Source: Ferrovibrio terrae
Lineage (GTDB): Bacteria > Pseudomonadota > Alphaproteobacteria > Ferrovibrionales > Ferrovibrionaceae
DNA length: 64,000 bases
Reading direction: 5' to 3'
Assembly (NCBI RefSeq): GCF_943371255.1
Contig: NZ_CALRUC010000002.1
Coordinates: 27,086 to 91,085, forward strand
The first letter of the stretch is position 1. The number at the start of each line of letters is the position of its first letter. Below are positions 1,231 through 17,044 of the stretch, piece by piece. Position numbers and translations under genes: made by a program. Under the pieces are notes generated by a model. It was not told the origin of the DNA, searched no databases, and saw nothing but the letters and a program-made list of their open reading frames with translations.

Positions 1231-1256
1231 CGAACCGCTGACAGCAGGAGAGCAGC

Positions 1257-1622
1257 ATGACCAAGAACCGCCGCGCCGGCCGCATCTATCTCAAAGTGGA
1301 TGGCGTCCGCTACGATGCCAAGGGCAGTTTCTCGTACAACCTTGGCGCACCGAAGCGTACCGCAATCGTCGGCGCCGACAAGGTGCATGGCTTCTCGGAA
1401 GAGGTGCAGGTGCCTTACATCGAGGGCGAGATCACCGACAGCCCCGACTTCGATCTCCGCAAGTTCACGGAGATCGATGGCGCCACCATCACCCTTGAGC
1501 TGGGCAACGGCAAGGTGATCTCCCTGCGCGAGGCCTGGTACGCGGCCGAAGGCAAGGGCGAAACCAAGGAAGCGAATATCGAGGTTCGCTTTGAGGGCCT
1601 GGATGCCGAGGAGGTGCGCTGA
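1257..1622 (+). CDS. Phage tail tube protein (Mu gpM-like)
   Basis: 121 aa, RBS AGGAG; AGRIYLKVDG...G..R..IVG.D.VHGFSE....PYIEGEI pattern; position after sheath. Confidence 0.85.
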   Translation: MTKNRRAGRIYLKVDGVRYDAKGSFSYNLGAPKRTAIVGADKVHGFSEEVQVPYIEGEITDSPDFDLRKFTEIDGATITLELGNGKVISLREAWYAAEGKGETKEANIEVRFEGLDAEEVR

Positions 1623-1888
1623 TGACCAACAGCTACACCCTCAAGGTTCCCGTCAAGCACGGTTCCGATGAGATCACCGCGCTCACCTTCCGCAAGGCCA
1701 AGGCCCGCGACTTTCGCGAGCTGAAGGTTGGCGGCGACGGTGCGATCCCGATCGGCGACCTGCTGGACCTGGCCGCGCGCCTCAGCGACCAGGCGCCGTC
1801 CGTGATCGATGAGCTGGACCCCATCGACATGATGGAGGTGCTCAAGCGCACGGCGGGTTTTACCACGCCTGGCCAGAAGACTGGTTAG
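1622..1888 (+). CDS. Tail assembly chaperone (gp41/GpE-like)
   Basis: 88 aa between tube and TMP; LTFRKAKARD and IDELDPIDM motifs; slippery G GGT TTT near 3' end. Confidence 0.75.
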   Translation: MTNSYTLKVPVKHGSDEITALTFRKAKARDFRELKVGGDGAIPIGDLLDLAARLSDQAPSVIDELDPIDMMEVLKRTAGFTTPGQKTG

Positions 1889-2019
1889 ACGCATTCGACC
1901 TGCTCGCCGGCGAGCCATTCAACATCTCGCCGGCCGAGCTTTGGGAAATGGATGGCCCGGATCTCATGTTCTGGGTTTCGCGCGCCGCGAGCAGACTCAG
2001 CAAACAGAACAAGGGGTAA
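1855..2019 (+). other. Programmed -1 frameshift site and extension (GpE'-like) of the tail chaperone
   Basis: X XXY YYZ heptamer G GGT TTT at 1855-1861 in chaperone frame; -1 frame reads GFYHAWPEDWLDAFDLLAGEPFNISPAELWEMDGPDLMFWVSRAASRLSKQNKG* ending 2019, 3 nt before TMP start. Confidence 0.75.
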
Positions 2020-2022
2020 GCC

Positions 2023-3651
2023 GTGACCGGCTTCTCTCTCTCCATCATCATCAAGGCTGTTGACCAGGCGACCGCGCCGCTGCGCCGGATCGCTGACCAG
2101 CTGAACAATGCAACCGAACCGGTACGCCGGCTCGGTTCATCGTTGCGCGGCTTCAACGATGCCGCGGGCATCCCGCGGCTGACGGCTGGGATCGGCGGCG
2201 TCGCCGGCGCCATGCGTGGCGTTAGCGGTGAGGCGATGCTGCTGGCCGGCCGCATGTCGTCGCTCGCTTCCGGCTTCGGCCTGCTCGGTGCTGGCGGCAT
2301 CTATGCGTTCAAGACGCAGTTCCTTGACGTGTCAGCGCAGTTCGAGCGCTTCGAGACGATCCTGGGCACCGTCGAAGGATCGAGCGATAAGGCGAAGGGT
2401 GCCATGAGCTGGATCTCCGACTTCGCTACCAGCACGCCTTACGAGCTGAACCAGGTGACTGACGCTTATGTGAAGCTGCGCTCCTATGGCCTGAACCCGA
2501 CCAACGGACTGCTGCGGACTCTGGGCGATACCTCTGCTGCAATGGGCAAGCCGCTCATGCAGACGGTCGAAGCGATCGCCGATGCCGTCACCGGTGAAAA
2601 CGAGCGCCTCAAGGAATTCGGTATCCGGGCCAGCAAGGTGGGCAGCCAGATTGTCTACGAATACACGGACGCCGCCGGCAAGACCCAGCGCAAGGCAGTC
2701 GCGGCGAATAACCGCAACCTGATCGAATCGGTGCTCAAGTCGATCTGGAACGATAAGTATGCTGGCTCGATGGACAAGCTGTCGGGCACCTGGGATGGCA
2801 TGATGTCGAACCTTTCCGATCAGTGGACCAGGTTCTCGCGCATGCTGATGGATGGCGGCGCATTCGACTGGCTTAAAACGCAGCTTAAAGAGCTGCTCGA
2901 TACCATCGACAGCATGGCCGCCAGCGGCGAGCTGCAGCAGCTGGCCCAGGATCTGGGCGGCCAGCTGCGCGACGCACTGATTGCCGTGAAGGATGCCGGC
3001 ATCCAGTTCGCCGCCTGGGTCCGGGAGACCTGGCCTCAGATGCAGACCTTTGCCCAGGCTGTCGGCGGCTGGGGCAATGTGCTCAAGGGTGTGGCGTTCA
3101 TCCTGGCCGGCCCGTTCATCGTATCGCTGCTCACGCTCGGCCAGGCTTTCGTTTCCCTGGGTATGGCGATGTGGGCAACACCGATCGGCTGGGTGGTTGC
3201 CGGCATCGCAGCGATCGTCACGGCCGCCGTGCTGCTCTACACGCACTGGGACACCGTCACCGCAAAGCTGCAGCAGGCCTGGGCGATCATCAAGGAGGCC
3301 TTCTGGTCGCTTGTGGAGGGCATCGCCAAGGGCGTCGCGCAGATCGCCGACCTGTTGCCCAAGCAGCTGGGCGGCGAAATGGCGGTCAAGCTGAAGGCCT
3401 TTGCCGAGCTGGCAGCCAGCAACCGCACCGAAGCGCAATCGGCAATGCCTCAGTCGGCCACCGGCGCTGCCACGGTTCGGACCGGCGCTGGCGATGTGAT
3501 GCGCGCCAATGCCGGCGCCGGCGACAACAACAGCAAGACCGAAGTTCTGATCAAGGCCGAGAACCTGCCGCAGGGCATGAGCGTGCGCGTGGGCGAAACC
3601 ACCGCCGATCGTGTGAGCATGGATCTCGGCCGGGCGATGGCCGGCCCATGA
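2023..3651 (+). CDS. Tape measure protein
   Basis: 542 aa, Ala/Gly-rich helical; TMP-type N-terminus (LSIIIKAVDQATAPLR) and core (FATSTPYEL, GTWDGMMSNLSD); position after chaperone. Confidence 0.85.
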   Translation: MTGFSLSIIIKAVDQATAPLRRIADQLNNATEPVRRLGSSLRGFNDAAGIPRLTAGIGGVAGAMRGVSGEAMLLAGRMSSLASGFGLLGAGGIYAFKTQFLDVSAQFERFETILGTVEGSSDKAKGAMSWISDFATSTPYELNQVTDAYVKLRSYGLNPTNGLLRTLGDTSAAMGKPLMQTVEAIADAVTGENERLKEFGIRASKVGSQIVYEYTDAAGKTQRKAVAANNRNLIESVLKSIWNDKYAGSMDKLSGTWDGMMSNLSDQWTRFSRMLMDGGAFDWLKTQLKELLDTIDSMAASGELQQLAQDLGGQLRDALIAVKDAGIQFAAWVRETWPQMQTFAQAVGGWGNVLKGVAFILAGPFIVSLLTLGQAFVSLGMAMWATPIGWVVAGIAAIVTAAVLLYTHWDTVTAKLQQAWAIIKEAFWSLVEGIAKGVAQIADLLPKQLGGEMAVKLKAFAELAASNRTEAQSAMPQSATGAATVRTGAGDVMRANAGAGDNNSKTEVLIKAENLPQGMSVRVGETTADRVSMDLGRAMAGP

Positions 3652-4853
3652 CCGAAGTTCGCGACTATCGCCAGGCGTCATTCCGCGGCGTGCCATTTCA
3701 GGTGGCCGTTGCCGATGACGAATTCGGCCGCCGCGGCGAACACCATGAGTTCCCCGGCCGCGACAAAGGGTTCTTCGAGGATCTGGGCAAGAAGGATCCG
3801 CAGTTCGCGCTCGATGCCTACCTGGTCGGCGACGACTATGCCGATCAGCGCGACAAGCTTCTTGCCGCCTGTGATGAACAGGGCCTTGGCGAGCTGGTGC
3901 ATCCTTACTATGGCGTCAAGCAGGTTGCCTGCATCGGCGTCCGCACCCGACACGACAAGGCGAAGCGGCGGCTGGTTTCATTGTCGCTCACGTTCCTTGA
4001 AACCGGCGCCGCACCACAGGCCGTTGCCCAGCCGATGCGCGGCAGCCAGGTGTTTCGCGCGGCCGACAACGCCCAGGGCGTGGCGATCGAAGATTTCAGC
4101 AAGGCCTTCAATCTGTCCGGTCAGCCCGGTTTTACGGTGCAAGAGCTGACCGACGTTTTGAGCGGCGGCGCGGATCTGATGCAGAATATTTCTTCGCCAG
4201 TGCAGAGTGTGTCGAACCTTGGCAGCGGCATCGGCGGCCGCTCGGCCTTCTCGCGCGGTCTGTCGATGCTGCGCGGCACATCGCTGTATGAGCCGTTTTC
4301 TCTCGGCACCCAGCTGTTTTCCGCCTTCGGCTCGCTGAGTCAGATCGGCGGCTATGGCGCAGGAAGCTATCAGAGCAGCCGGTCGGTCTGGTCCTACGGA
4401 TCATCGGTTACGCCTGTGCCGCTCACCACCGAGACGCGGCGGATCCAGGCGTCTAACCAGTCCGCCCTGGTCAGCCTGTTTGAACGTGCTGCCATCATCG
4501 AGGCCGGCCGCTCGATCCCGACTTACGACTTTGAGAGCTATGACGAAGCCGTTGCAGTCCGCGATGAGTATTCGGAGCGCATCGATCGCGAGCTGGAGTC
4601 GACGCGATCTGATGACGTGTTCCGCACGCTCACCGATCTGCGCGCCGGCGTGACGGGTGACGTTCGTGAGCGCGCCACGGATCTCGCCCGTGTTTCAACC
4701 ATCACGCCGGCGATGACGTTACCCGCGCTAGTCGTGGCCTATGACAGCTTCGAGGACGTATCCAAGGCCGACAGTATCGCCAGGCGCAATAAGATCCGGC
4801 ATCCGGGCTTTGTGCCCGGCGGCCGCCCACTTGAGGTGCTGATCGATGGCTGA
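3648..4853 (+). CDS. DNA circulation/circularization protein (Mu gpN-like)
   Basis: ASFRGVPFQV...GRR...HEFPGRD...EDLG; G.LVHPYYG; C-terminal PALVVAY...RN.IRHPGFVP; ATGA overlap with TMP. Confidence 0.85.
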   Translation: MTEVRDYRQASFRGVPFQVAVADDEFGRRGEHHEFPGRDKGFFEDLGKKDPQFALDAYLVGDDYADQRDKLLAACDEQGLGELVHPYYGVKQVACIGVRTRHDKAKRRLVSLSLTFLETGAAPQAVAQPMRGSQVFRAADNAQGVAIEDFSKAFNLSGQPGFTVQELTDVLSGGADLMQNISSPVQSVSNLGSGIGGRSAFSRGLSMLRGTSLYEPFSLGTQLFSAFGSLSQIGGYGAGSYQSSRSVWSYGSSVTPVPLTTETRRIQASNQSALVSLFERAAIIEAGRSIPTYDFESYDEAVAVRDEYSERIDRELESTRSDDVFRTLTDLRAGVTGDVRERATDLARVSTITPAMTLPALVVAYDSFEDVSKADSIARRNKIRHPGFVPGGRPLEVLIDG

Positions 4854-5943
4854 TGCAGACATTGCCGAGCTGATCGTCGGCGGCAAGGCCTATTCAGGCT
4901 GGAAGGATGTGACCGGCATTCGCCAGATCGATGCCATCGCCGGCGGCTTCGAGCTGGAGCTGTCCGAGCGGTGGGACGGCCAGGCGGTGCGATGGCCGAT
5001 TGATCCGGGCGATCAATGTGAGCTGCGCCTGGCGGGCGAAACCGTAGTAGTGGGGAACGTCGACTCGGCCCAGCGCCAGATCGACAAGCAGAGTCACCGC
5101 GTCACCATCAAGGGCCGCGACAAGACCGGCGACCTGGTCGATTGCTCGGCAATCCACACGCCCGACGAGTTTTCCGGCCTTGACGCCCTGTCGCTTGCCA
5201 AGACGCTGGCGCAGCCCTTTGGTATTTCCGTTTCGGCCGATATCCCGGTTGGGGCTCCTTTCAATCCCTTCAAGCTGCAGCCGGGTGAGTCCTCGTTCGA
5301 GGCGATCGAGCGCGCCTGCCGTATGCGTGCATTGCTGCCGATGTCTGACGGCCGGGGCGGCATGGTTCTGACGCGCGCCGGCAGCGGCCGCGCTGCCTCT
5401 GCAATTGTCGAAGGTGGCAATTTGCTGAGTGGCTCGGCCGAGAATGACTGGTCGCAGCGTTACAGCAGCTACACGGTGAAGGCACAGTCAACCAGTGCGC
5501 TGGCAGAAGATCCCGACGACACAGCCGGCATTGAAGGTTCGTCCGGCGATCGCGGCGTGAACCGCCATCGGCCGCTGCTGATCGTCGCAGAAGGCATTGC
5601 CGACACGGCGGCGGCTCGTGAGCGTGCCCAATGGGAGGCCGGCGTGCGTGCTGGCAGGTCCGTGACAGTTACTACTCTGGTGCAGGGCTGGCGTCAGGCG
5701 GATGGCGCGCTGTGGCCGCTGAACAGCCTTTGCCCGGTGAAGATTCCCAGCCTCGATATCAACGACACGCTGCTGATTACGGCGCTGCGCTTCACCTTCG
5801 GCGCCCAGGGCAGCCGCACCGAGATCAGCATGACCAGGCCGGACGCCTTCCGCCTGATCCCGGAAATACCGAAGGGCAAGAAGAATACCGGCCTGCCCGA
5901 AGGCACCCAGGTGATCACGTCCGAGGGGCAGCTGAAACGATGA
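4846..5943 (+). CDS. Baseplate hub protein (Mu gp44/gpP-like)
   Basis: YSGWKDV, GRDKTGDLVDCSA, QPGESSFEAI, RA.WEA..RAGRS, GWRQ.DG.LW..N motifs. Confidence 0.85.
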   Translation: MADADIAELIVGGKAYSGWKDVTGIRQIDAIAGGFELELSERWDGQAVRWPIDPGDQCELRLAGETVVVGNVDSAQRQIDKQSHRVTIKGRDKTGDLVDCSAIHTPDEFSGLDALSLAKTLAQPFGISVSADIPVGAPFNPFKLQPGESSFEAIERACRMRALLPMSDGRGGMVLTRAGSGRAASAIVEGGNLLSGSAENDWSQRYSSYTVKAQSTSALAEDPDDTAGIEGSSGDRGVNRHRPLLIVAEGIADTAAARERAQWEAGVRAGRSVTVTTLVQGWRQADGALWPLNSLCPVKIPSLDINDTLLITALRFTFGAQGSRTEISMTRPDAFRLIPEIPKGKKNTGLPEGTQVITSEGQLKR

Positions 5944-6473
5944 GTAAACGCCTGTTCGATGCTGCCATGAGGCCGACTGTCAATCGCGTCAAGCTGGCGA
6001 TCGGCCGCGCCGTGCTCCGCCTAGTGTCCGATGCCGGCGTGCTGCAGCGGCTACAGATCGAGGGCCTGAAGGATGAGCTGTTCTGGGCCGACCGGATCCA
6101 GAATTACGGTTTCTATTCCAATCCGCCGCCTGGCGCGGATGTCGCGGTGGTGTTCCAGGGGGGCGACCGTGGCGCCGGCGTCGCGGTTGGTGTCGATCAT
6201 CGCGACTATCGGCCGAAGAACCTCAAGACCGGCGAAGCAATGATGGCCGACATGTTCGGCAAGTTCATCTACATGCAGGACGATGGCACGATTGTGATCA
6301 AGGCCACCAAGATCCGTCTCGAGGCGGCAATGGTCGAGGGCACCGGCGAGATCAAGGACCGCTGCGACAGCGACGGCAAGACGATGTCCGGTATGCGTGC
6401 AAGCCATAACACACATAAACACCCAGAGAACGGCGGCGCCGGGCCGACCGATGTTCCCACCGAACCGATGTAA
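5940..6473 (+). CDS. Baseplate spike protein (Mu gp45/gpV-like)
   Basis: QRLQIEGL.DE...IQNYGF.S.PP.GA; C-terminal HNTHKH metal-binding HxH tip. Confidence 0.85.
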   Translation: MSKRLFDAAMRPTVNRVKLAIGRAVLRLVSDAGVLQRLQIEGLKDELFWADRIQNYGFYSNPPPGADVAVVFQGGDRGAGVAVGVDHRDYRPKNLKTGEAMMADMFGKFIYMQDDGTIVIKATKIRLEAAMVEGTGEIKDRCDSDGKTMSGMRASHNTHKHPENGGAGPTDVPTEPM

Positions 6474-6477
6474 GACG

Positions 6478-6936
6478 ATGGATATCCGCGTCACCTTCGA
6501 TGATGTCACGCTCACCGGTGATCTGGCCGTGGTCGCGGGCCTGCTTGCGCTTGAGCCTGGTCCGAAGTCGTCCATCATCATTTCGCTGTTCAGTGATGCG
6601 CGTGCCGGCGCTGCCGATGAGCTGCCGGACGATGAAACCTCGCGCCGCGGTTATTGGGCCGATGCGCTCAGTGACGATCCCGAAGAAAGCACCGGCTCGC
6701 TGCTCTGGTTGTTGCAGCGTGAGAAGCAGACTGAGAAGACACGGCTTCGCGCGAAGGCATATGCCGAACGCAGCCTGCAATGGATGATCAGAGACGGGGT
6801 GGCGCGCGCCATCACGGTAGTAGCCGAATGGATCGGGCAAGGTCGCCTTGGCCTGGGGATCGCAGTGTCTCGCCCTGACGGGACAACGGAGCGGTATCGC
6901 TTCGAGCAGATCTGGCAAGCAGCCGAAGCAGAATAG
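6478..6936 (+). CDS. Baseplate protein (Mu gp46-like)
   Basis: IIISLFSDARA, RRGYWAD, GSLLWLL.REK, A...L.WM..DGVA motifs. Confidence 0.85.
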   Translation: MDIRVTFDDVTLTGDLAVVAGLLALEPGPKSSIIISLFSDARAGAADELPDDETSRRGYWADALSDDPEESTGSLLWLLQREKQTEKTRLRAKAYAERSLQWMIRDGVARAITVVAEWIGQGRLGLGIAVSRPDGTTERYRFEQIWQAAEAE

Positions 6937-6947
6937 GAAACCGTTCA

Positions 6948-8012
6948 ATGGCGTTTCAGCGTCCATCGCTAACCGATCTTGTCGCGCGGGTCCAGTCGGA
7001 TATCGATGTCCGACTGCCCGGCGCTGACAGCCGGTTGCGGCGTTCGGCGCTGACGGTGCTTGCCTATGTGATCGCCGGCACGGCGCACATGCTCTATGGC
7101 TTCATTGAATGGGTGGCGCGGCAGATCCTGCCCGATACGTCGGATCTCGATATTCTCGCCCGACATGCTAGCATCTGGTCTGTGCTGGCCCGCGCCGCCA
7201 CGTTCGCGACCGGCAATGTAACGCTTGCCGGAATCTCCGACACCGTGATCGCTGCCGGCACCAGGCTGTTGCGGAATGATGGCCTGATTTACCGCACCAC
7301 GGCCGAGGTGACGATCGAGGACGGCGCGGCAACCGCTCCAGTGGAAGCGGAATCGGCAGGCCTGCTGGGCAACGCTGCCGCCGGTGTGGTGCTCAATCTG
7401 ATCACTCCGATCGCCGGCGTGCAGTCTGCGGCCGCAGTGGCAGTCGGCGGCCTGACCGGCGGCGCTGATGACGAAAGCGCGCAGAGCCTTCTGGCGCGTC
7501 TGTTGCAGCGGATCCAGCTGCCACCGCATGGCGGCGCCGATTTTGATTATCCCTACTGGGCCAAGAAGGTCGCTGGCGTGACGCGGGTATGGGTTGCGCC
7601 GCGTGCAATGGGCCTTGGCACGGTGACTGTCCGCTTCATGATGGATGATGCTTATGACGATGGCATTCCGCAGCCTGCTGATGTCACCGCGGTGCAGGCT
7701 TATATCGACCAGCTGAGCATTCGGCCGGTTACGTGTGAAGTGTTCGTCGTGGCGCCGATCGCCGTGCCGCTCAATTTCCAGATCTCCGGCCTGAACCCGT
7801 CAACGACAGCTGTACGAGAGGCAATTAAAGCCTCGTTGAAAGACCTGATCCGACGTGAAGCGGTGCCCGGTGGCACGATCCTGTATTCGCATATCCGCGA
7901 GGCAATCTCCGTTGCCGCCGGCGAGTACAACCACGGCCTGGTTGCACCGGTTGCCGATGTCGCCCACGGCACCGGGCATATCTGCACCCTCGGCGTTGTG
8001 AGTTTCGTCTGA
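6948..8012 (+). CDS. Baseplate J-like wedge protein (Mu gp47-like)
   Basis: MAFQRPSL, GGADDES, PPHGGA..DY..WA..V.GV.R.WV motifs. Confidence 0.9.
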   Translation: MAFQRPSLTDLVARVQSDIDVRLPGADSRLRRSALTVLAYVIAGTAHMLYGFIEWVARQILPDTSDLDILARHASIWSVLARAATFATGNVTLAGISDTVIAAGTRLLRNDGLIYRTTAEVTIEDGAATAPVEAESAGLLGNAAAGVVLNLITPIAGVQSAAAVAVGGLTGGADDESAQSLLARLLQRIQLPPHGGADFDYPYWAKKVAGVTRVWVAPRAMGLGTVTVRFMMDDAYDDGIPQPADVTAVQAYIDQLSIRPVTCEVFVVAPIAVPLNFQISGLNPSTTAVREAIKASLKDLIRREAVPGGTILYSHIREAISVAAGEYNHGLVAPVADVAHGTGHICTLGVVSFV

Positions 8013-8599
8013 TGCGCTCGACCCCGGATCAATACCTTCGCCAGCAACAGGCCCTACTTCCGCCAGGCGCCGCCTGGTCGCGCTCACCTGGCACGATCAT
8101 CACGGCGATCCTTGAGGTGTTCGCCGAGACCTGGGCACGCCTGCATAACCGTGCCGCAGATCTGCTGGAAGAGGCGGATCCGCGCACCACGCTTGAGCTG
8201 TTGCCCGACTGGGAGCGCGTCACTGGTCTGCCCGATCCATGCTTTGGTACGGAACAGACGGTGCAGCAGCGTCGGGCCGCCCTGGTCGCGCAACTGACGG
8301 CCACCGGTGGTCAAGACCGGCAATACTTCATCGATCTGGCCGCGCGCCTTGGCTACGAGATCACCATTCAGGAGTTCCGCCCGTTTCGTGCCGGCAGCCT
8401 GGCCGGCGATCCATGCTGCGATGAACCGTGGTGGTTCGTATGGTACGTGAAAGCACCGCTGGACACTTACCGCGAGTTTTGCGCCGGCATCTCTTGTGCA
8501 GGCGAGCCGATCCGCACCTGGGGCAATGAACCACTCGAATGCACGATCCGGCGTTATGCGCCGGCTCATACTCTCGTCAAGTTCAGTTACGGAGAATAA
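8012..8599 (+). CDS. Baseplate wedge protein (Mu gp48/YmfQ/DUF2313-like)
   Basis: LLPPGAAW, EADPRTT.ELLPDWER..GLPD.C, LEC.IRRYAPAHT motifs. Confidence 0.9.
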   Translation: MRSTPDQYLRQQQALLPPGAAWSRSPGTIITAILEVFAETWARLHNRAADLLEEADPRTTLELLPDWERVTGLPDPCFGTEQTVQQRRAALVAQLTATGGQDRQYFIDLAARLGYEITIQEFRPFRAGSLAGDPCCDEPWWFVWYVKAPLDTYREFCAGISCAGEPIRTWGNEPLECTIRRYAPAHTLVKFSYGE

Positions 8600-8602
8600 G
8601 CC

Positions 8603-9214
8603 ATGTTTTTCCCCGATCGCTTGGCCGCCGAAACGCCGCCCGCCGTACCTGCTGTCGGTACGCCCGGCTTCTTCACACACGGCAATGCCGGGCTTGATGT
8701 CCCTGCCACTCCAGTAGAGAGCTGGTGGCTGAATATGGTGACGCAGGAGTTGGCAGCGGTCGTCGCGGCCGCTGGCCTCACACGGGACAAGACCAATAAT
8801 GCCCAGGTGGTCCAGGCGATCAATGCGCTGATTACCGCCGGCGTGCCTTCGCTAGCGAATGTCGCTTTCCTGAACCAGGTTCAGTCCTTCTCCAAAGCAC
8901 AGGGCAGCACGGCAAAGGTGCTGACTGCCGCGTCGCCCGTGGCGATCGACTTCGCGGACTCAAACCTTTTCACCTTCGCACCGGCGACCAGCTTCACCCT
9001 GGGCAATCCTGGCAGTGTCGTGAACGGGCGCCCGTTCATGATCATTGTGACGCAGCCTGTCGGCGGTAACTGTGCGTGGGGCTTCAATGCCAACTGGGTG
9101 TTCGAGGACAATGAATTGCCCTCACCACTGCTCACCGCGAACGCGCTCAACATCTTCATCGGCACCGGCCTGCCTGCGAGCAAGGCAACCGGCCGCATGA
9201 TCAGCATCGTCTAA
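8603..9214 (+). CDS. Short tail-fibre/adaptor protein with Mu gp49-like N-terminal anchor
   Basis: PGFFT.GN.....PAT.V...WLN.V..EL..VV.AAGL...K....Q anchor motif; only 203 aa. Confidence 0.7.
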   Translation: MFFPDRLAAETPPAVPAVGTPGFFTHGNAGLDVPATPVESWWLNMVTQELAAVVAAAGLTRDKTNNAQVVQAINALITAGVPSLANVAFLNQVQSFSKAQGSTAKVLTAASPVAIDFADSNLFTFAPATSFTLGNPGSVVNGRPFMIIVTQPVGGNCAWGFNANWVFEDNELPSPLLTANALNIFIGTGLPASKATGRMISIV

Positions 9215-9219
9215 TCGCT

Positions 9220-11586
9220 ATGCACCAGACCATTTATCCGCTGCTGATGGGCGGTTGCCAGAAATACCGGGCCAAGCGCTCGGTGATCGTGGATGCCGCC
9301 AACTCGGCAAGTATTTCGTGGGCGCCCGGAGCTGCCGGAAACCTCAAGCAGTGGACCGCCAGCATTGTGTGCAAGCTGGTCAATCCTGTCAGCTATATGC
9401 CGCTGTTCGATGCCGACAACACCGGCAACGATACCATCACGTTCGGCGCAATCAACGGTGGCCAGCTGCGCTGGATCACTAATGCACAGGGCAGCGCCAC
9501 CTCGCTGCTGCAGACCACCTCGCTGTTCACAGACACGTCAGGCTGGCTGCACTTCCTGTTTAATCTCAACACACCCCACGCGACCGCGGCTGAGCGCCAG
9601 CGCATGTTTACTCAGGGCCAGCGGATCAGCCAGTTCGCGTCGGTTTCCTACATCGCCCAGAATGCCGATCTGCGCTGGAACAACACCGGCTTGCACCAGC
9701 TCGGCAAGGAGCGGACGAATTACGGCAGCTTCATTTTCGGTGATTTCAAGTTCATTGACGGGCAGGGCGCGCTGGATCCGACAGACTTCGGCCGCTTCGA
9801 CCCGAAGAGCGGAACCTTTGCGCTTCGGCACTTCATGGGTGGCTATGGCCTGAATGGCCGACACTACCCGTTCGTCGGCGACGCCGGCGACGCCCCTGCG
9901 ACCGCTGCAGAAGGCATGAAAGACCGCGCGCCGATCGATGGCACGCATGTTGCGGCCAACAATGCGACCGCTGCCGGCATCGCTACAACGGACTTCGTAA
10001 AGGACAGCCCGACGAACTTTAAGATCGGCACAGATCTTCGCGGAAACTTCTGCACATGGTCGCCGAACAATCCGGGAGGCAAGGCCGGATATACCGGCCA
10101 GACAGTTTCGGATGGCGGCTTGCGGGTCAGCCCGACAACCTCTCACACCGCGTTTGGCACTATCGCGCTGCCGCGCACCGGCTGGTACTTCTGGTCGAGC
10201 CTCTATGAAAGCGGCTCGTGGCCGATCTTCGGTATCGCCCAGGCACAAGCCGCCGGCAACACACAGTACAACACCGGGCCTTACGGTTGGCAGTACGTCT
10301 GGTATGGCAATGGCGGCAATGGCACGATGCTGCCCGGTAGCGCCGGTGCTGATGCCAATTCGCCGAATACCGTTGGCGATGAAGCCTTGGTCTGCGTTCG
10401 CGTTCAGCAAAACAAGGTCTGGCTCGGCCGGCGTCGCGCCGGCGTCGTCTCGTGGATCGGCGGCGGAGATCCTATAGCTGGCACCAATCCGACCTTTAGT
10501 GGTTCCGGCGGCGGTGGCGTCTATCGCACCGACCTCGATCTTTCCGTTTCCACCTGGTATCCGTTTGTTGCGGGCTCAGCTGGTGGCCCGACCTGGCGCA
10601 CGAATTTCGGCCAGCGTACAGCTGCATACTGGCCAGCCGGATATCTTCCGCTCTGCGTTCCTGCGCTGCCTAAAGCCACGATCGTGCGGCCCGCGGCCGC
10701 GTTCGTCCAGGCGGTGGACACTGGCGCGAATATTTCCTCTGCGCTTGCCACCAAGCGCGCAGCATGGGGCAACTCATATATCGATATTATCCGCAGCACC
10801 GGCGCAGAAGGTTGGCGCTTCCGCTTCGGCGATGATCCGACAAAGTTTCTCGACTCTTCTGACAACGCGAACCCGAAGCAGAACTTTCCGGCGCTCGCTG
10901 GCGGTTCTTACTGGGGCGGCAGCATTCGCACCGGTGCAACCTATGGCGTGGTCTCGGGCGAGGCGGTGCATGTCAATGGCGTGACCACCACGATCACCGA
11001 CAATCTGGGCACCGGCCGTAAGATTGTCATTGTGCGCCGCGCCGATGCCGGTGGCGCCTGGTACACCTACCACCCGGACCTGACTGCCGGGAAACTGATC
11101 TATCTGAATACGTCAGCCGGCGAGACCACGGACGGCTCGATCGGCGCATTCACCTCCAACAGCTTCCAGATTCATAGCGGCCAGCCCAGTGGCACCTACC
11201 GCTATATCGTTCTCGCCGAGACTTCGGGGCTGATCGGGATCGGTTTCTATTGGGGACATGGTTCTGTGCCAGGGCCGATGTGCCAGCTCAATCATTCGTC
11301 GGCGCTAACGTTCTGGAAGCGCACCGACTCTGCTGGCGACTCCTACGTGGTGCCGTCCGCACTCAATTCCAACAATCCGCGCGACTACTGCATGTCGTTC
11401 AATTCGGCCAGTGCAGCCGGGCCGGCGCCCTCACGCGCAGTCGAAGTTACCGCGAACGGCATCCAGCAGCGCGGATCGCCAGCACAGGCCGATGCAAACG
11501 CAAATGGCGGAGTTTATGTGGTCCTGAGCTTCGCGGAGTTTGCCTTTGCAACAGGCGACTGCGCGGCACAGGGCATGGCACGATAG
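9220..11586 (+). CDS. Large multidomain receptor-binding/fibre protein (ConA/LamG-like + SPRY-like beta domains)
   Basis: 788 aa, Gly/Thr/Trp-rich; follows fibre anchor; segments such as AGNLKQWT, DSPTN..GNFCTWSP, AFGTIAL..GWYFW, NFGQR..Y.PAGYL.LC...LP. Confidence 0.65.
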   Translation: MHQTIYPLLMGGCQKYRAKRSVIVDAANSASISWAPGAAGNLKQWTASIVCKLVNPVSYMPLFDADNTGNDTITFGAINGGQLRWITNAQGSATSLLQTTSLFTDTSGWLHFLFNLNTPHATAAERQRMFTQGQRISQFASVSYIAQNADLRWNNTGLHQLGKERTNYGSFIFGDFKFIDGQGALDPTDFGRFDPKSGTFALRHFMGGYGLNGRHYPFVGDAGDAPATAAEGMKDRAPIDGTHVAANNATAAGIATTDFVKDSPTNFKIGTDLRGNFCTWSPNNPGGKAGYTGQTVSDGGLRVSPTTSHTAFGTIALPRTGWYFWSSLYESGSWPIFGIAQAQAAGNTQYNTGPYGWQYVWYGNGGNGTMLPGSAGADANSPNTVGDEALVCVRVQQNKVWLGRRRAGVVSWIGGGDPIAGTNPTFSGSGGGGVYRTDLDLSVSTWYPFVAGSAGGPTWRTNFGQRTAAYWPAGYLPLCVPALPKATIVRPAAAFVQAVDTGANISSALATKRAAWGNSYIDIIRSTGAEGWRFRFGDDPTKFLDSSDNANPKQNFPALAGGSYWGGSIRTGATYGVVSGEAVHVNGVTTTITDNLGTGRKIVIVRRADAGGAWYTYHPDLTAGKLIYLNTSAGETTDGSIGAFTSNSFQIHSGQPSGTYRYIVLAETSGLIGIGFYWGHGSVPGPMCQLNHSSALTFWKRTDSAGDSYVVPSALNSNNPRDYCMSFNSASAAGPAPSRAVEVTANGIQQRGSPAQADANANGGVYVVLSFAEFAFATGDCAAQGMAR

Positions 11587-11596
11587 GGAGATGGCA

Positions 11597-12256
11597 ATGA
11601 GCCAGGTGGCTGAGTTTTATATTCCGAATGTTGGCAACGTGGCCGCGGACCAGGGCTTCACCGGTCCAAATGGCACGCAATACGGCGCGGGCTGGCTTCT
11701 CAATCCGCCGGAAGTCGAAGCCGCCGCGCTCGGCGTCCTTCCGCTGGTTCGCGAGGAGAAGCCTGACCACGACAGCAACACGCAATATCTGCGCGAGCAG
11801 CAGGTCGGGGCAGTGATCTCCTATGTGGTCGAAGACATTCCGAGCGAAGAGATCGAGGCGCGCCTAGCCGGTCTTGCTGTTGCGGCCGCAATGCAGGTGG
11901 ATCTGGCGGCCGAGCAGGCCCGGATGCGTTTCATTACGCCAGGCGCCGGCCAGGCAATGGTGTATCAGACCAAGATCGAAGAGGCCGCGCGGTGGATTGC
12001 TGCGGGTTCCCCGCCGGACCTCTCCGCTTATCCCTTCATCGCGGCCGAAGTCGGTCTCACCGCACCATCTGCTGCTGAGCTGGTTGCGCTGTGGCAGACG
12101 ATGGAGAGCGGCTGGCGCACTGTTGCGGCCCAGATCGAAGCGGTCCGCATGACTGGCAAGAACGCGATCAACGCAGCGGCCGCCGGCGGCGATCCCGCGG
12201 CGATCACTGCCGCGTTGAACGCCGCCCTGGTTACACTGGCGGCCTTCGCGCCTTGA
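11597..12256 (+). CDS. Tail-fibre-associated/assembly protein
   Basis: RBS GGGAG; 219 aa; AAEQARMRFITPG.GQAMVYQ.K.EEA..W...PFIAAE pattern common in proteobacterial phage tail loci. Confidence 0.55.
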   Translation: MSQVAEFYIPNVGNVAADQGFTGPNGTQYGAGWLLNPPEVEAAALGVLPLVREEKPDHDSNTQYLREQQVGAVISYVVEDIPSEEIEARLAGLAVAAAMQVDLAAEQARMRFITPGAGQAMVYQTKIEEAARWIAAGSPPDLSAYPFIAAEVGLTAPSAAELVALWQTMESGWRTVAAQIEAVRMTGKNAINAAAAGGDPAAITAALNAALVTLAAFAP

Positions 12257-12438
12257 TCCCGCAGCGGCCCATCCGCGTCGGTGAAACCGTCAGGATCACC
12301 GACGCGATCTATGGCGAAGTGAAAGAGGTGGTTGCCGATTATTTCGGAACAATCGACCGCCTGATCATCGAAGTGTCTGATACGTGTTTTATCAATCTGT
12401 TTATCGAAGATCTGCCGACGCAGAGGCTTGATTCGTGA
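12253..12438 (+). CDS. Small hypothetical protein (61 aa, KOW/SH3-like start IRVGETVRIT)
   Basis: TTG start overlapping previous stop (TTGA); lower GC; no function assignable. Confidence 0.4.
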   Translation: MIPQRPIRVGETVRITDAIYGEVKEVVADYFGTIDRLIIEVSDTCFINLFIEDLPTQRLDS

Positions 12439-12476
12439 TCGACCATTTTCATCAAGACATTTCCTCAGCTGGCGTC

Positions 12477-12582
12477 GGCCGGCGGGGGTCGGGCTGCGCT
12501 AACAGCCCGAACCGCGAGGTGAGATCTCGCACGACCAAGACCGGCCTATCTGGGCCATCCCGCCACCCCTGCAGGGGCGGGA
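12477..12582 (+). promoter_or_regulatory. Structured leader upstream of com (multiple hairpins)
   Basis: TCGGGCTG-cgctaa-CAGCCCGA (12489-12510), GCGAG-N7-CTCGC (12514-12530), TCCCG..CCCC-tgca-GGGGCGGGA (12558-12582), closing GGCCGG/CCGGCC (12477-82/12541-46). Confidence 0.45.
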
Positions 12583-12603
12583 ATGTCATAGGGATCTCAA
12601 CAG

Positions 12604-12810
12604 GTGGAGTCTATTCGCTGCGGCCGCTGCGAGCGGTTGCTTTTCAAATCGACACCAGGCGCTGTCACAGGACGAATCGAAGTGAAGTGTTCTCGGTGCG
12701 GCAGCATCAATCAGATCAGGGCCGCGAGCCCATCACCGGAACGCCAGCGAGCGTCATTCATAGAGGAAACTATGATGACCAACGCAAACGACTCGGGGAG
12801 CGTAAAGTGA
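12604..12810 (+). CDS. com: Mu Com-family zinc-finger regulator
   Basis: IRCGRCERLLFK...IEVKCSRCGSINQ (CxxC...CxxC); position at Mu com locus. Confidence 0.85.
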   Translation: MESIRCGRCERLLFKSTPGAVTGRIEVKCSRCGSINQIRAASPSPERQRASFIEETMMTNANDSGSVK

Positions 12811-13718
12811 ATGTGGCTTTATCTCCCTTCAACGGCCTTGCGCTCTGTGCCGGCGGCGGCGGCCTCGAACTTGGCATCCATATTGCCGAACCCGAATATC
12901 GAACTGTTTGTTACGTTGAGCGGGAAGCCTACGCTGCAGCCGCTCTCGTGGCACGGATGGAAGACAAGGCGCTATCTGACGCGCCTGTCTGGAGTGACGT
13001 TACCAGCTTCAACGGCCGTCCGTGGCGCGGCGTCGTGGATATCCTCTCTGCGGGTTACCCGTGCCAGCCTTTCAGCTCGGCCGGCAAGAAACTCGGCACG
13101 GCGGATCCGCGCCACCTCTGGCCGCATGTCGCCAGGATCGTCCGTGAGATTGAGCCGGAATGGCTCTTCCTCGAAAATGTCCCGCACCATCTCCGCGTCG
13201 GATTTCCCGTGGTCGCAAACGACCTACGAGAAATGGGCTACCGGTTTGTGGCGGGCCTGTTCTCTGCGCGAGAAGCGGGTGCTGCACATTTCCGGCGGCG
13301 ACTCTTCGTACTGGCCCACGCCGACCGCGAGCAATGCCGGCGATTGGCCTCAAGTGCGTGTGGGCGCCACGATGCAGTTTTGCGATCCGCCGAACGGAAA
13401 CCAATTCGCGCTGCCAATGGCCGCGCGGATCTGGTGTCTGTGGTGGGATATGATCGTCGCAACCGTCGGCGTGCGCGCTATCGCGCAACGTCCGGCGAGC
13501 TGCCTGTCTATGCCCCTGGTCCAGGTGCTCTTGAAGCCTGGGCGCACATCATCGGAAGCGATCCCAGTCTTAAACCCGCGCTTTGGCGAGATGCTGATGG
13601 GCTGGCCGACTGGGTGGACCGCAACCGAGTCGTCGGTAACGGAGTTTCATCGGTGGCTGCGGCTTTCGCGTTCTGTACTCTCAAAGCTGAACTCTTTGCG
13701 GATGGATCTGCATCGTGA
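12807..13718 (+). CDS. DNA (cytosine-5) methyltransferase, alpha chain (lacks motif IX)
   Basis: GTG start overlapping com stop (GTGA), RBS GGGGAG; motifs I LCAGGGG, II VERE, IV GYPCQPFS, VI ENV, VIII HFRRRLFVLA, X GNGV. Confidence 0.88.
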   Translation: MNVALSPFNGLALCAGGGGLELGIHIAEPEYRTVCYVEREAYAAAALVARMEDKALSDAPVWSDVTSFNGRPWRGVVDILSAGYPCQPFSSAGKKLGTADPRHLWPHVARIVREIEPEWLFLENVPHHLRVGFPVVANDLREMGYRFVAGLFSAREAGAAHFRRRLFVLAHADREQCRRLASSACGRHDAVLRSAERKPIRAANGRADLVSVVGYDRRNRRRARYRATSGELPVYAPGPGALEAWAHIIGSDPSLKPALWRDADGLADWVDRNRVVGNGVSSVAAAFAFCTLKAELFADGSAS

Positions 13719-13773
13719 GGGTGAAAACCGCGATGTACCCGGCAATAATGCGGGCATCGAATCGGGGGAATGA
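12811..13773 (+). CDS. Overlapping +1-frame ORF: putative beta chain of the C5-methyltransferase (supplies motif IX)
   Basis: 320 codons open; WPTPTA (from 13312) and LNPRFGEMLMGWPTGWT (13570-13620) resemble TRD/motif IX segments; starts right after com stop and ends right before next ATG. Confidence 0.7.
   Translation: MWLYLPSTALRSVPAAAASNLASILPNPNIELFVTLSGKPTLQPLSWHGWKTRRYLTRLSGVTLPASTAVRGAASWISSLRVTRASLSARPARNSARRIRATSGRMSPGSSVRLSRNGSSSKMSRTISASDFPWSQTTYEKWATGLWRACSLREKRVLHISGGDSSYWPTPTASNAGDWPQVRVGATMQFCDPPNGNQFALPMAARIWCLWWDMIVATVGVRAIAQRPASCLSMPLVQVLLKPGRTSSEAIPVLNPRFGEMLMGWPTGWTATESSVTEFHRWLRLSRSVLSKLNSLRMDLHREGENRDVPGNNAGIESGE
13721..13749 (+). promoter_or_regulatory. Possible sigma70-type promoter for the GNAT-like gene
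   Basis: GTGAAA-N17-AATAAT upstream of RBS GGGGGA and ATG 13774. Confidence 0.3.
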
Positions 13774-14475
13774 ATGAACATCGCGCGCCAGATCGATCGG
13801 CACGCCGCGGCGATTGTTGCGGCGCTTGCCGAAGGCGGGTTCAAGGCTCATTTGAACGATGACCCGAAAGCCTATGCCGACTATGTCGGCACGGTGCCGG
13901 GTTACAGCCTGACCTCTCCGCTCGATCTGGCGTTTGTCGATGTGCGCGAGAAATTCATCTGGCTTCGCGTCACAGATAGCGCCGGCAATCTCGTCGCCAT
14001 CGAGGCTGGCCGTTATCTCAAAGCACCGACGCTCACCGGCGGCCTGAATCGCCTGCTGAAATCCCGGCGCTTCTTCGGTGAGCATCGCCCGACATTGCCT
14101 GTCGTCACGACGCTGCCGGCAATCAACCTCAGCGGCGACCTGGGCTACATGGGTGGCGGCTTCGTTGCCAAGGAGCATCGGGACCGCGGCGTCATGAGCC
14201 TCACGGCGCAGCTGACGATGCTACATCTCATGCGGCTGTTTCCCATCGATCATCTGTTCGGCCTGGTCAAAGCGCAGCACGTTGCGCGATCGCTGCGGCT
14301 GCAGGGTTATGGGTTCACTTCTGCGACTGCAGTGCGTTGGGCTTACTGGGCCGATTCGGCAGCGCCGGAGACCCTCTTCATGGTGCATGTTGACCGTGCG
14401 GCACTCATTGATCGTGTGGATGAACAGCCACATTACGCGCTCAAGAAATCCACGATCGTAGAAGGTAAAGTCTAG
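13774..14475 (+). CDS. Orphan GNAT/acyl-CoA N-acyltransferase-fold protein
   Basis: 233 aa; GGGFVAKEHRDRGVMSL resembles GNAT motif A (V.xxxR..G); FIWLRVTD.AG..VA..AGR and FGLV strands. Confidence 0.5.
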   Translation: MNIARQIDRHAAAIVAALAEGGFKAHLNDDPKAYADYVGTVPGYSLTSPLDLAFVDVREKFIWLRVTDSAGNLVAIEAGRYLKAPTLTGGLNRLLKSRRFFGEHRPTLPVVTTLPAINLSGDLGYMGGGFVAKEHRDRGVMSLTAQLTMLHLMRLFPIDHLFGLVKAQHVARSLRLQGYGFTSATAVRWAYWADSAAPETLFMVHVDRAALIDRVDEQPHYALKKSTIVEGKV

Positions 14476-14510: not shown

Positions 14511-14538
14511 TTGACAGAGAACCACCACCGAGGATAAT
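14511..14538 (+). promoter_or_regulatory. Near-consensus sigma70 promoter for the HTH/PAS gene
   Basis: TTGACA (14511-16)-N16-GATAAT (14533-38), then RBS-like GAGAGGA and ATG 14569. Confidence 0.6.
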
Positions 14539-14568
14539 TCCGCTCTACCGAGAGGATATATCCGCGCC

Positions 14569-15276
14569 ATGACGACAGGTTGCAGTGGTAGTAGCGATGA
14601 AAGGGACGCCCTGAAGGATTTTGGGGCTCGATTCAAAGCTGCATTCGACCATCGCGTGAGCCTAGCGGGCCTGGATCAGAAGGATGTCGCCGCGGCGATC
14701 AAGAAGCATCCTTCGACGCTTCGGGCACATCGGGCCGGCGAGAACCCGATGAGCTACTTAGATCTGGAAGCCTATGACGACTATTTCGCAGCGATCGGCC
14801 AGCCTGGTCTGATCGATGACGTTCGGCAGCAGCGAAACTGGACTGCCTATGCCGAACAGCTGCAGAGCGTTTCTGAATATGGGCCAGCGCAGCGGCTGAT
14901 GGAATGCGCGCCTGGCCTGCGGTCGGCCGGCGGTGCGATCGAGGAGTTTTTAGCCGAGCAGGGCCTGCTGCCATACGTGCATATCATGGTGGCAGCTGAT
15001 GGTGCCGTGAGGACGAGCGCGATCGGCTCGAAGATGCCGACCGCCAGGGCGCTCGATCCTAGCATCAAGATGCGTGACGTCCGGAACCTCAGCGACCGGG
15101 CGTATGGTCAATTCCTGCACCGCCAGGTGCATGAGCTGCTGCAGGATGGCAGGGACGTTGTGCAGCATATTTCGGCGCCTTCGATGAGCTATTACAGGCT
15201 CGGCGTGCCGGTGGGAAACTTCCTGGTCGCCGTGACGTTCGGCGCCCAGGTCATTCCGTCTTACAAGTTGGGTTGA
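14569..15276 (+). CDS. XRE-type HTH protein with C-terminal PAS-like (PAS_5-like) domain
   Basis: LDQKDVAAAIKKHPSTLRAHRAGENP HTH; C-terminal LLPYVHIM...VRTSAIGS...SYYRLGVPV pattern. Confidence 0.55.
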   Translation: MTTGCSGSSDERDALKDFGARFKAAFDHRVSLAGLDQKDVAAAIKKHPSTLRAHRAGENPMSYLDLEAYDDYFAAIGQPGLIDDVRQQRNWTAYAEQLQSVSEYGPAQRLMECAPGLRSAGGAIEEFLAEQGLLPYVHIMVAADGAVRTSAIGSKMPTARALDPSIKMRDVRNLSDRAYGQFLHRQVHELLQDGRDVVQHISAPSMSYYRLGVPVGNFLVAVTFGAQVIPSYKLG

Positions 15277-15303: not shown

Positions 15304-15465
15304 ATGGGTAAGGAAGCAGGATTTCAGGCGGGCAGCGACAAGCCGGATCGGGCGACGGCTCTTAAGCCGTCCATGGAGAAGGCAAAGGTGAAGCCCAGAA
15401 CCGAGATCTTAAAGATCAAGCGCGGGCGGCTCTCGGTCGAGCTGCGGATCAGCGGCGAAGATTGA
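15304..15465 (+). CDS. Small basic hypothetical protein (53 aa; not in supplied ORF track)
   Basis: AGGGG RBS 8 nt before ATG; MGKEAGFQAGSDKPDRATALKPSMEKAKVKPRTEILKIKRGRLSVELRISGED*. Confidence 0.4.
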   Translation: MGKEAGFQAGSDKPDRATALKPSMEKAKVKPRTEILKIKRGRLSVELRISGED

Positions 15466-15467
15466 TG

Positions 15468-16007
15468 TCACTGATCGATAAATTCGTCGGCCACGGGCAG
15501 CCGGTTGGGTGTGATCAGAATCCGGCCCAAACCCTTCCGCCTGCACTGCTGGCAGCGCGCTGCCCGCTCGGCGGCGATCAGGGTCATATTGCCCTTGCCG
15601 GCAGCGACCAGGGCGGGCAGGTCAAGCTCGGCCCGGTGACGGCACAGATTGCCGTGCGGCGGCAGGGGCGCGAGGCAGTGAACCGAGGCCTTATCGCCCC
15701 GGCTGTGGTGATAGCCCAGCGTGGGCGCCCTGCGGTCCTTCCGGTAGAAGGTTTCCTCGGGCGTTTCCGGGCGCCTGGTGATGACAAAATCGAGGCCCTT
15801 GGCGTTGCAGGCAGGGCAACGCAGCAGAGGGCCGATTTCCTCCAGCGGCGTCTTGTCGCCGTGCAGGACAGCCAGGCGCAGCGGCTGCAGCTCTCTCTGG
15901 TGCCCGAAACGGCACCGGCCGAAGAGTTTGACGCCGCCGCGGCTGACGCCGATCGGGGTGGTAAGGTCGGGCGGTGGAGAGCGTCGAACGGGCTGCATTT
16001 GTTCCAT
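15468..16007 (-). CDS. Tandem zinc-ribbon protein (two C..H...C..C units)
   Basis: RCRFGH...LRCPACNAKG and HC...CRH...RCQQCRRKG internal duplication; probable start ATG 16007. Confidence 0.55.
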   Translation of the reverse strand: MEQMQPVRRSPPPDLTTPIGVSRGGVKLFGRCRFGHQRELQPLRLAVLHGDKTPLEEIGPLLRCPACNAKGLDFVITRRPETPEETFYRKDRRAPTLGYHHSRGDKASVHCLAPLPPHGNLCRHRAELDLPALVAAGKGNMTLIAAERAARCQQCRRKGLGRILITPNRLPVADEFIDQ

Positions 16008-16082
16008 TGATTCCCGGCTTGAAGCCGGGGCGCAATAGAGCAACCGTTAAAGGCCGTTTGAGGCTTGTGGGTAAATCTGAGG

Positions 16083-16158
16083 AAATGTCTCGGAAATGGG
16101 CGATAAATGGAGTCCGAAATCAAATGTCGCGGAATCCGAAATTTTGCGGCGCGCTACA
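16083..16158. repeat. Mu-like right end with repeated transposase-binding-like sites
   Basis: AAATGTC(T/G)CGGAA at 16083 and 16122; TCCGAAAT at 16113 and 16135 (22-bp spacing); terminal CA at 16157-16158. Confidence 0.7.
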
Positions 16159-17044
16159 TTCAGCCCCTCAACCGCAGCCCGGCCATGATTGGGAAGCGCG
16201 TCTGCCCGCGCCCGACCTGCTGCGCCAGGCCTATGCGCGGGATGGCTATGCGATCATCCGTGGACTGTTTTCCCCGGCCGAGGTGGCCGCCATGGCCGGG
16301 GCCTTCGACCGCCTGCAGGCCTCCGGCCTGGCGCTCGGTCGCAGTTTCCGCCATGGCAATCTGCTGTTCCGGCTGGGCGACGACCCGCATCTGGGCCGCA
16401 TCCTGCGCATGGTGCAGTGGCCGTCCTGGCGCGATGCCCTGCTGGACCGCGTGCGGCTCGATCCCCGTTTCGTGGCCGTGCTGAAACCCCTGATCGGCGA
16501 CAACCTCAAGCAGATCATCAACCAGATGCACTGGAAGCCGCCGGGCGCGGCGAAAGTGGAATTCGCCTATCACCAGGACAGCCGTTTCCGCCGGCCGGCC
16601 GAGGCCTTCCGCGATCTGGCCGGCTCTTATGTGCAGACCGGCATCGCCATCGACGCGCATACAAGGGCCAGCGGCGCCATGAAGGTGATCCCGGGCAGCC
16701 ATCTGCTCGGCAACCTCGATCTCGGCGGCGACGGTCCGATCCTGCAGCAGACGATGCAGGATGCGGCCCTGCAGGCGGTCGGCCTCGATCCGGCCGCGGC
16801 AGTCGATCTCGAACTGGCGCCCGGCGATCTGGCGCTGTGGTCGCCCTTCCTGGTGCATGGTTCGGGGATCAACAGCACGGCTGCCGACCGCCGGCTCTAT
16901 ATCAACGGTTATGTCACAGCTGAAAACTGTGATCGCGGCGAATGGGCTTTTCGCGCCGGCCAGCCGCAACGGCTCGGTGTCGAACCCGTTCTGGTGCATT
17001 ACGAAGCCCTGCACGAAAAGCCCGAGCCGCATTTCGTTGAGTGA
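16124..17044 (+). CDS. Phytanoyl-CoA dioxygenase (PhyH) family Fe/2OG enzyme; 5' end apparently interrupted by prophage
   Basis: AYARDGY, HWKPPG...YHQD, G.MKVIPGSH, PGD...W...LVHGS...R motifs; the only nearby in-frame ATG (16124) lies inside the phage end. Confidence 0.75.
   Translation: MSRNPKFCGALHSAPQPQPGHDWEARLPAPDLLRQAYARDGYAIIRGLFSPAEVAAMAGAFDRLQASGLALGRSFRHGNLLFRLGDDPHLGRILRMVQWPSWRDALLDRVRLDPRFVAVLKPLIGDNLKQIINQMHWKPPGAAKVEFAYHQDSRFRRPAEAFRDLAGSYVQTGIAIDAHTRASGAMKVIPGSHLLGNLDLGGDGPILQQTMQDAALQAVGLDPAAAVDLELAPGDLALWSPFLVHGSGINSTAADRRLYINGYVTAENCDRGEWAFRAGQPQRLGVEPVLVHYEALHEKPEPHFVE

Follow-up and report, generated by a model that had tools for sequence, protein, structure and literature searches.

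A candidate autoregulated HTH and PAS_5-like regulator beside a GNAT-fold gene at the right end of a Mu-like prophage of Ferrovibrio terrae

Introduction

At the right end of a Mu-like prophage of Ferrovibrio terrae, a regulator-like gene stands behind its own promoter and directly after a gene for an acyltransferase-like protein. What does such a regulator respond to, what does it control, and is its neighbour part of the answer? The locus lies in a stretch of 64,000 nucleotides, here called the window, which covers positions 27,086 to 91,085 of contig NZ_CALRUC010000002.1 (assembly GCF_943371255.1), or G000:C2:27086-91085, where G000 is the host genome and C2 coordinates are those of the contig; other positions are counted within the window. 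A preliminary description of this DNA had read the protein as an XRE-type HTH fused to a PAS-like sensor and had suggested a phage small-molecule receptor, which together with the GNAT-like gene upstream could form a synthase-receptor pair in a circuit for phage communication or for sensing host metabolites.

The putative sensor belongs to a poorly charted neighbourhood of protein families. PAS_5 (PF07310), formerly DUF1457, is a large family of single-domain proteins of Alphaproteobacteria. To our knowledge it has no assigned ligand or function; a literature search on PF07310, PAS_5 and DUF1457 found nothing functional, and a sequence comparison of PAS_5 with the PDB found no solved structure. 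We propose that the target gene encodes an autoregulated one-component regulator with a GNAT-linked, PAS_5-like input, expressed independently of the com-methyltransferase-GNAT string that precedes it, and we give this reading a probability of roughly 0.55.

Results

Prophage context

The ends of the prophage were mapped from the empty site of a close relative and lie at C2:3510 (TGTAGGG...) and at window position 16158 (...GCGCTACA), with host sequence resuming at 16159. A Mu-type transposase at C2:5296-7446 marks the left end, and baseplate genes of the Mu gp43-48 type lie together with a DUF7483 tail fibre gene within positions 1-12400 of the window. Beyond these the gene order is com, C5 methyltransferase, a 233-aa GNAT, the target, a 53-codon ORF and a 191-aa minus-strand ORF:

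12604 to 12810, plus strand: com homologue (Mu translational activator), head of the com-methyltransferase-GNAT string; PF10122, E 5e-13
12811 to 13773, plus strand: C5 cytosine DNA methyltransferase region; PF00145, E 2e-29, on ORF 12435-13718
13774 to 14475, plus strand: partner gene for a 233-aa GNAT-fold acyltransferase-like protein; AF2, Foldseek and adjacency
14569 to 15276, plus strand: target gene T, 235 aa, XRE-HTH with a PAS_5-like domain; first-start-to-stop ORF
15304 to 15465, plus strand: 53-codon ORF, unannotatable; no homologue in other loci
15468 to 16043, minus strand: 191-aa ORF, unannotatable, with CxxC pairs; ORF call
16083 to 16158, plus strand: right end of the Mu-like prophage, ...GCGCGCTACA at 16158; empty-site comparison

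The com homologue matches Mu Com by BLASTP (2e-8), and prophage L026, a relative, has a homologue of the 191-aa ORF in the same position (41% over 72 aa). From the target gene it is about 0.9 kb to the right end of the prophage and about 37 kb to the transposase and early region at its left end. Given the mapped ends and com, the target is cargo of the prophage and occupies the place where Mu has com-mom. Mu keeps its repressor in the left-end early region, and a CI or Mu c-type lysogeny repressor was rejected as an identity for the target given its right-end position; such repressors lie in the immunity/early region and control early promoters, and the box pair described below occurs only before the target itself.

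The prophage is flanked by an imperfect direct host repeat of about 30 bp (28/31 identical; 16159-16189 and G000:C2:3479-3509), which is present once in the empty site of the close relative L045 and differs from the 5-bp duplication expected of Mu. The related prophage of L002 likewise ends in ...CCGGCGCGCTACA and borders on the corresponding site, at the 5' end of a PhyH gene; the PhyH of the L002 host is only 74% identical. Together, the repeat and the L002 end suggest a site preference or an unusual insertion mechanism.

An HTH fused to a divergent PAS_5-like domain

Scanned alone, the target gave nothing significant in Pfam, NCBIfam, PHROGs or PADLOC, and its domains emerged from comparisons at the level of the family:

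14626 to 14793, plus strand: N-terminal XRE/CI-type HTH, about residues 20-75; family HTH profile matches and PDB profile matches
14887 to 15213, plus strand: C-terminal PAS_5-like domain, about residues 107-215; profile-profile comparison, controls and bridging sequences

The Pfam match of the window copy to HTH_3 (PF01381) is sub-threshold (E 0.14). In a 30-sequence family alignment, HTH_3 matches 11 members (best E 6.6e-5) and HTH_31 (PF13560) matches nine, and the family profile recovers lambda CI and other XRE chains from the PDB (E 0.005-0.03). These profile matches assign the N-terminus, at the family level, to the XRE/CI-type HTH that the preliminary description had recognized, the same class as in lambda CI, other XRE repressors and the controller (C) proteins of restriction-modification systems. 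A conserved GxPGLIDE linker motif follows directly after the HTH, at residues 77-85.

The C-terminal segment had been likened to PAS_5-type domains through three short stretches, LLPYVHIM, VRTSAIGS and SYYRLGVPV. Pfam finds no PF07310 match at E <= 1 in the target or its family, and the target is not among the 57 PAS_5 matches at E <= 10 in a scan of its own genome. We compared the C-terminal columns of the family with an alignment of 39 PAS_5 paralogues from the same genome; hhalign joins the two with 94.1% probability (E 1.2e-7, 107 columns), and all three stretches lie inside the alignment. No control exceeds 0.5%: neither the PAS_5 profile in reverse, nor any of ten queries with shuffled columns, nor the N-terminal half, nor the profile of the GNAT. 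An HMM built from the PAS_5 proteins of the genome directly matches family members L021 and L024 (E 2.8e-5 and 2.5e-4), and a bona fide PAS_5 protein (E 4e-12) from another genome also matches the family C-terminal profile. On the strength of the hhalign score, its controls, the direct HMM matches and this bridging protein, we regard the domain call as correct: by profile comparison, the C-terminus of the target is a remote homologue of PAS_5, too divergent for Pfam's threshold. The target differs from the PAS_5 proteins, which are single-domain, in falling below every Pfam threshold and in its fused N-terminal HTH, while its C-terminal domain is homologous to them by profile-profile comparison and bridging sequences.

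Structure prediction adds little here. The AF2 model of the target, built from 4 aligned sequences with PAS_5 paralogues kept out as circular, is too poor (pLDDT 59, residues 142-185 below 50) for any pocket to be judged. In Foldseek this low-confidence model matches XRE folds at probability 0.97-0.99 and, for the PAS fold of a five-stranded sheet flanked by helices, gives a partial match only (3fg8, 46 columns, probability 0.82).

A promoter and a unique pair of boxes before the target gene

The 93 bp between the GNAT gene and the target, which do not overlap, contain the target's promoter and, between promoter and start codon, two GGAWWWWTCC boxes 22 bp apart:

14511 to 14538, plus strand: sigma-70-type promoter TTGACA-N16-GATAAT of the target gene; 11/12 consensus positions
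14532 to 14541, plus strand: box 1, GGATAATTCC, overlapping the -10 hexamer, candidate operator half; box-pair search
14554 to 14563, plus strand: box 2, GGATATATCC, a perfect 10-bp palindrome overlapping the RBS, candidate operator half; upstream-region comparison

The promoter hexamers (TTGACA, 14511-14516; GATAAT, 14533-14538) are separated by a 16-nt spacer, and the RBS, GAGAGGA, lies at 14550-14556. Sites that match the consensus at 11 or more of the 12 positions number only 12 on both strands of the whole 4.4-Mb, 64% GC genome, so the promoter, which had already been noted directly upstream of the gene, is not a chance-level feature. It is kept in the prophage-borne orthologues L001, L002 and L026.

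The box pair is rarer still. The genome contains 71 perfect single GGAWWWWTCC boxes, a count from which about 0.008 pairs would be estimated to arise by chance in 4.4 Mb, and one pair spaced 17-23 bp apart, that of the target; a search for pairs at this spacing elsewhere in the genome found none. Loose single boxes are common in the genome (79 matches) and uninformative for a regulon. Across the family, 8 of 19 upstream regions have a box with at most one mismatch, and these 8 come from roughly four or five independent lineages; among background windows of 240 nt the share is about 1%. The two-box layout, at a spacing of 18-22 bp, recurs before family genes whose proteins are only about 30% identical. 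No boxes were found upstream of GNAT genes.

Because the pair is unique in the genome and recurs before divergent paralogues, it is likely an autoregulatory operator for the target. An RNA structure is unlikely, since transcription is expected to start downstream of box 1. Against the autoregulatory reading, 10 bp make a short palindrome for an XRE dimer, and the boxes could serve a different protein. Operator boxes that overlap the gene's own promoter are known from autoregulated C proteins and phage repressors, and the target likewise has two operator-like boxes on its own promoter. In other respects it departs from both: C proteins are roughly 80 aa and the target 235 aa, the target is conserved without a methyltransferase in chromosomal loci, and where lambda CI has an S24 peptidase C-terminus the target has a PAS_5-like one.

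A family confined to Ferrovibrio

A word-index search of 5.8 billion proteins returned only 4 target relatives and, for the GNAT protein, 7; a profile re-search added three, and 26 target relatives came from an exhaustive search of cluster representatives at 50% identity. The named family members are all Ferrovibrio entries annotated 'hypothetical protein'. Among 61 related genomes, a profile search placed the target family in 12 of the 23 that belong to the genus, at no more than 3 copies per genome, and gave only fragmentary matches outside the genus. A collection of 50,697 phage genomes contains no homologue of either the target or the GNAT protein, a pattern scan of IMG/VR recovered no family relative, and the only relative in a genome-contig collection was a MAG contig already known. 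By these searches the family is confined to Ferrovibrio and is multi-copy and chromosomal; in the tree, prophage copies form a clade nested among chromosomal copies. A Ferrovibrio-only, multi-copy family without phage homologues argues that the cassette is a host invention carried by the phage lineage as cargo.

The host genome also has about 50 PAS_5 (PF07310) genes above the Pfam cut-off in its 4.4 Mb, which is a large family expansion. Several of these genes lie in tandem clusters, for example at C31:31149-35005 and, just past the window end, at C2:91445-92337.

The GNAT partner and its linkage to the regulator

The 233-aa partner gave no match in the Pfam, NCBIfam, PHROGs or PADLOC scans. 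Its AF2 model (pLDDT 77, pTM 0.81) has 99 PDB matches in Foldseek at E <= 0.001, and all those listed are GNATs, many at probability 1.00; the protein therefore has a GNAT fold, as had been suspected. Its best structural matches are Naa60 and arylalkylamine N-acetyltransferases, with FeeM at rank 25, and its motif-A-like RxxGxM differs from the canonical Q/RxxGxG/A.

The position of the partner raises the question of Mom. As in Mu com-mom, the right end of the prophage carries a com homologue followed by a GNAT-fold gene of Mom-like size (233 aa, near the 231 aa of Mom), and a methyltransferase adjoins the GNAT in all four prophage copies. The partner could on these grounds replace Mom in DNA or protein modification, with the regulator repressing or timing it. 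We consider this very unlikely and, as it stands, a fit of position only: the partner has no sequence similarity to Mom and was rejected as a Mom homologue (hhalign probability 0.1%), boxes are absent before GNAT genes, and the same pair is found in 7 loci without Mu-type tail genes or a methyltransferase nearby. The window also adds to the Mu arrangement a methyltransferase and a separately promoted regulator without Mu counterpart.

The preliminary description had proposed co-occurrence with the GNAT gene in other genomes as a test of its own reading, and we ran that test. A GNAT gene lies directly upstream, on the same strand, at 11 of 18 target-family loci, and all nine strong GNAT-family matches in 61 genomes adjoin a target homologue. 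Pairwise identities of the GNAT and regulator proteins correlate with r = 0.92, a value that marks co-inheritance and is no statistical test, since the pairs are non-independent. The other 7 of the 18 loci carry the regulator but no GNAT partner, so a partner is not essential for the regulator to work. Three further genomes have remote GNAT paralogues in convergent orientation to a neighbour less than 130 bp away; these neighbours are PAS_5 proteins, likewise match the family C-terminal profile, and indicate that the GNAT-PAS_5 association is older than the HTH fusion.

The prophage-borne loci are four (the window, L001, L002 and L026) and share the order methyltransferase, GNAT, regulator, with a methyltransferase class that varies from C5 in the window to D12 in L001 and L002. 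A D12-class N6-adenine methyltransferase without com occupies L001 8364-9188 and L002 1010-1834, where the window has com and C5 (12435-13773); the GNAT-regulator pair is kept downstream despite this methyltransferase swap in related prophages. In chromosomal copies a second XRE regulator often lies directly downstream, and six loci have an XRE (HTH_3) gene of 144-182 aa after the regulator, usually overlapping the regulator's stop codon. A Pfam scan of the L025 neighbours gave no matches; ORF calls there were greedy, in high-GC DNA, and possibly wrong.

Two Ferrovibrio genomes carry the cassette as a tandem duplication (L020:9135-12671 and L019:7657-11037), in the order regulator, XRE, GNAT, regulator, XRE, with a box pair of its own for each regulator copy. 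A possible very distant analogue lies at G000:C1:50964-52883, where all regulator-side matches are weak. There, a GGATTAATCC box stands 1 nt upstream of an HTH ORF of 189 aa whose match to the family profile is weak; next come an ORF of 184 aa that matches PAS_5 weakly and, in convergent orientation, a distant GNAT paralogue (E 1.8e-14).

A two-gene cassette in a prophage accessory region, many-copied and patchy in distribution, also invites comparison with toxin-antitoxin or anti-phage defence systems, in which the GNAT would be a toxic or effector acyltransferase and the HTH-PAS_5-like protein would neutralise it, repress it or do both. Pairs of a GNAT toxin and a DNA-binding antitoxin, of the TacT/AtaT type, form an established class; TacT/TacA and AtaT/AtaR likewise combine a GNAT-fold enzyme with a DNA-binding protein on mobile DNA, and the HTH protein here is apparently autoregulated via palindromic boxes. 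In GNAT toxin-antitoxin pairs, however, the antitoxin gene lies upstream and overlaps a toxin gene of roughly 160-175 aa. Here the order is reversed, GNAT then HTH, with 93 bp and a promoter between genes that do not overlap; the GNAT protein has 233 aa against toxins of roughly 170 aa, and the regulator has an XRE rather than an RHH fold. PADLOC matches neither protein, and membership of this class was rejected on order, spacer, size and the missing PADLOC match. The boxes, moreover, do not control the GNAT gene, and the regulator stands alone in conserved chromosomal loci. On balance, an explanation of this kind is improbable.

The linkage also bears on a synthase-receptor pair, in which the GNAT would make a diffusible acylated small molecule, the PAS_5-like domain would bind it and the regulator would use it to tune prophage or host behaviour, as a form of phage communication or metabolite sensing. 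In favour of such a pair, the two genes are tightly linked and co-diverge, GNAT and PAS_5 genes are also neighbours at greater evolutionary depth, a promoter of its own serves the regulator, and N-acyl amino acid synthases such as FeeM, the rank-25 match, share the GNAT fold. The top structural matches, on the other hand, are ordinary N-acetyltransferases (Naa60, arylalkylamine) and not LuxI/FeeM types, and no autoinduction loop is visible because the receptor box is absent before GNAT genes. The prophage GNAT is strung behind com and the methyltransferase like a late gene, with the regulator separate, and nothing ties the pair to the left-end transposase/early region or to a lysis-lysogeny switch. 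Given also that homologues are absent from sequenced phages and that seven loci hold the regulator without the GNAT gene, we regard a synthase-receptor pair as unlikely.

Discussion

Here, we describe a candidate one-component transcription factor that combines an XRE/CI-type HTH, a conserved GxPGLIDE linker and a divergent PAS_5-type domain. Members of its family travel together with a GNAT-fold acyltransferase gene immediately upstream, forming a cassette, and a Mu-like transposable phage has taken up the GNAT and regulator pair as right-end accessory cargo. The regulator may be transcribed apart from the com-methyltransferase-GNAT string, from its own near-consensus sigma-70 promoter, which makes it a plausible lysogen-expressed 'moron', the expression in the lysogen being what we would predict from the promoter. 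We infer from the uniqueness and recurrence of the two GGAWWWWTCC boxes, which cover the -10 hexamer and the RBS, that the protein binds them and probably represses its own gene. The PAS_5-like domain would serve as the input module, responding either to a small molecule linked to the GNAT reaction or to contact with the GNAT protein itself.

Much of the preliminary description has held up, including the prophage location, now mapped to its ends and empty site, the near-consensus promoter, both domain assignments, the GNAT-like neighbour and its co-occurrence in other genomes. Its proposal of a phage small-molecule receptor and communication circuit is so far not supported: the protein belongs to a multi-copy Ferrovibrio family that is absent from 50,697 phage genomes, the early region lies about 37 kb away, and the box pair stands only before the target gene. 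The model invoked for that proposal also differs from the target. Phage quorum-sensing receptors of the VqmA type bind an autoinducer and switch on a lysis-triggering gene, and VqmA has an N-terminal PAS ligand domain and a C-terminal HTH, a domain order opposite to that of the target, in which the HTH is N-terminal and the PAS_5-like domain C-terminal; a Pfam scan gave no sign of VqmA homology, and no VqmA chain was among the PDB profile matches. VqmA-Phage of vibriophage VP882 is a quorum-sensing receptor with PAS and HTH domains (bioRxiv 10.1101/2021.04.15.439952, PMC12802170). Like the target, it is a phage-carried, host-derived transcription factor with a PAS-type domain and an HTH; unlike VqmA-Phage, the target has no adjacent lysis-triggering gene. 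On present evidence, the target is an uncharacterised one-component regulator and not a demonstrated communication system.

The box pair, the Ferrovibrio-confined, host-derived family and the architecture of an XRE HTH with a PAS_5-like domain are new. A PAS_5 version with a DNA-binding domain offers a tractable way into the PAS_5 family, with a readable candidate operator and an obligate enzyme neighbour, and the locus is a clear case of a Mu-like phage filling the com/mom accessory slot with a host regulator-enzyme cassette. Beyond this, it is conceivable, at long odds, that the GNAT and the HTH-PAS_5-like protein form a new acyl-metabolite signalling or sensing cassette captured by the Mu-like phage. 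If so, the cassette would provide the first function for any PAS_5 domain, and the prophage would make and/or read a small molecule, adjusting its own or its host's behaviour.
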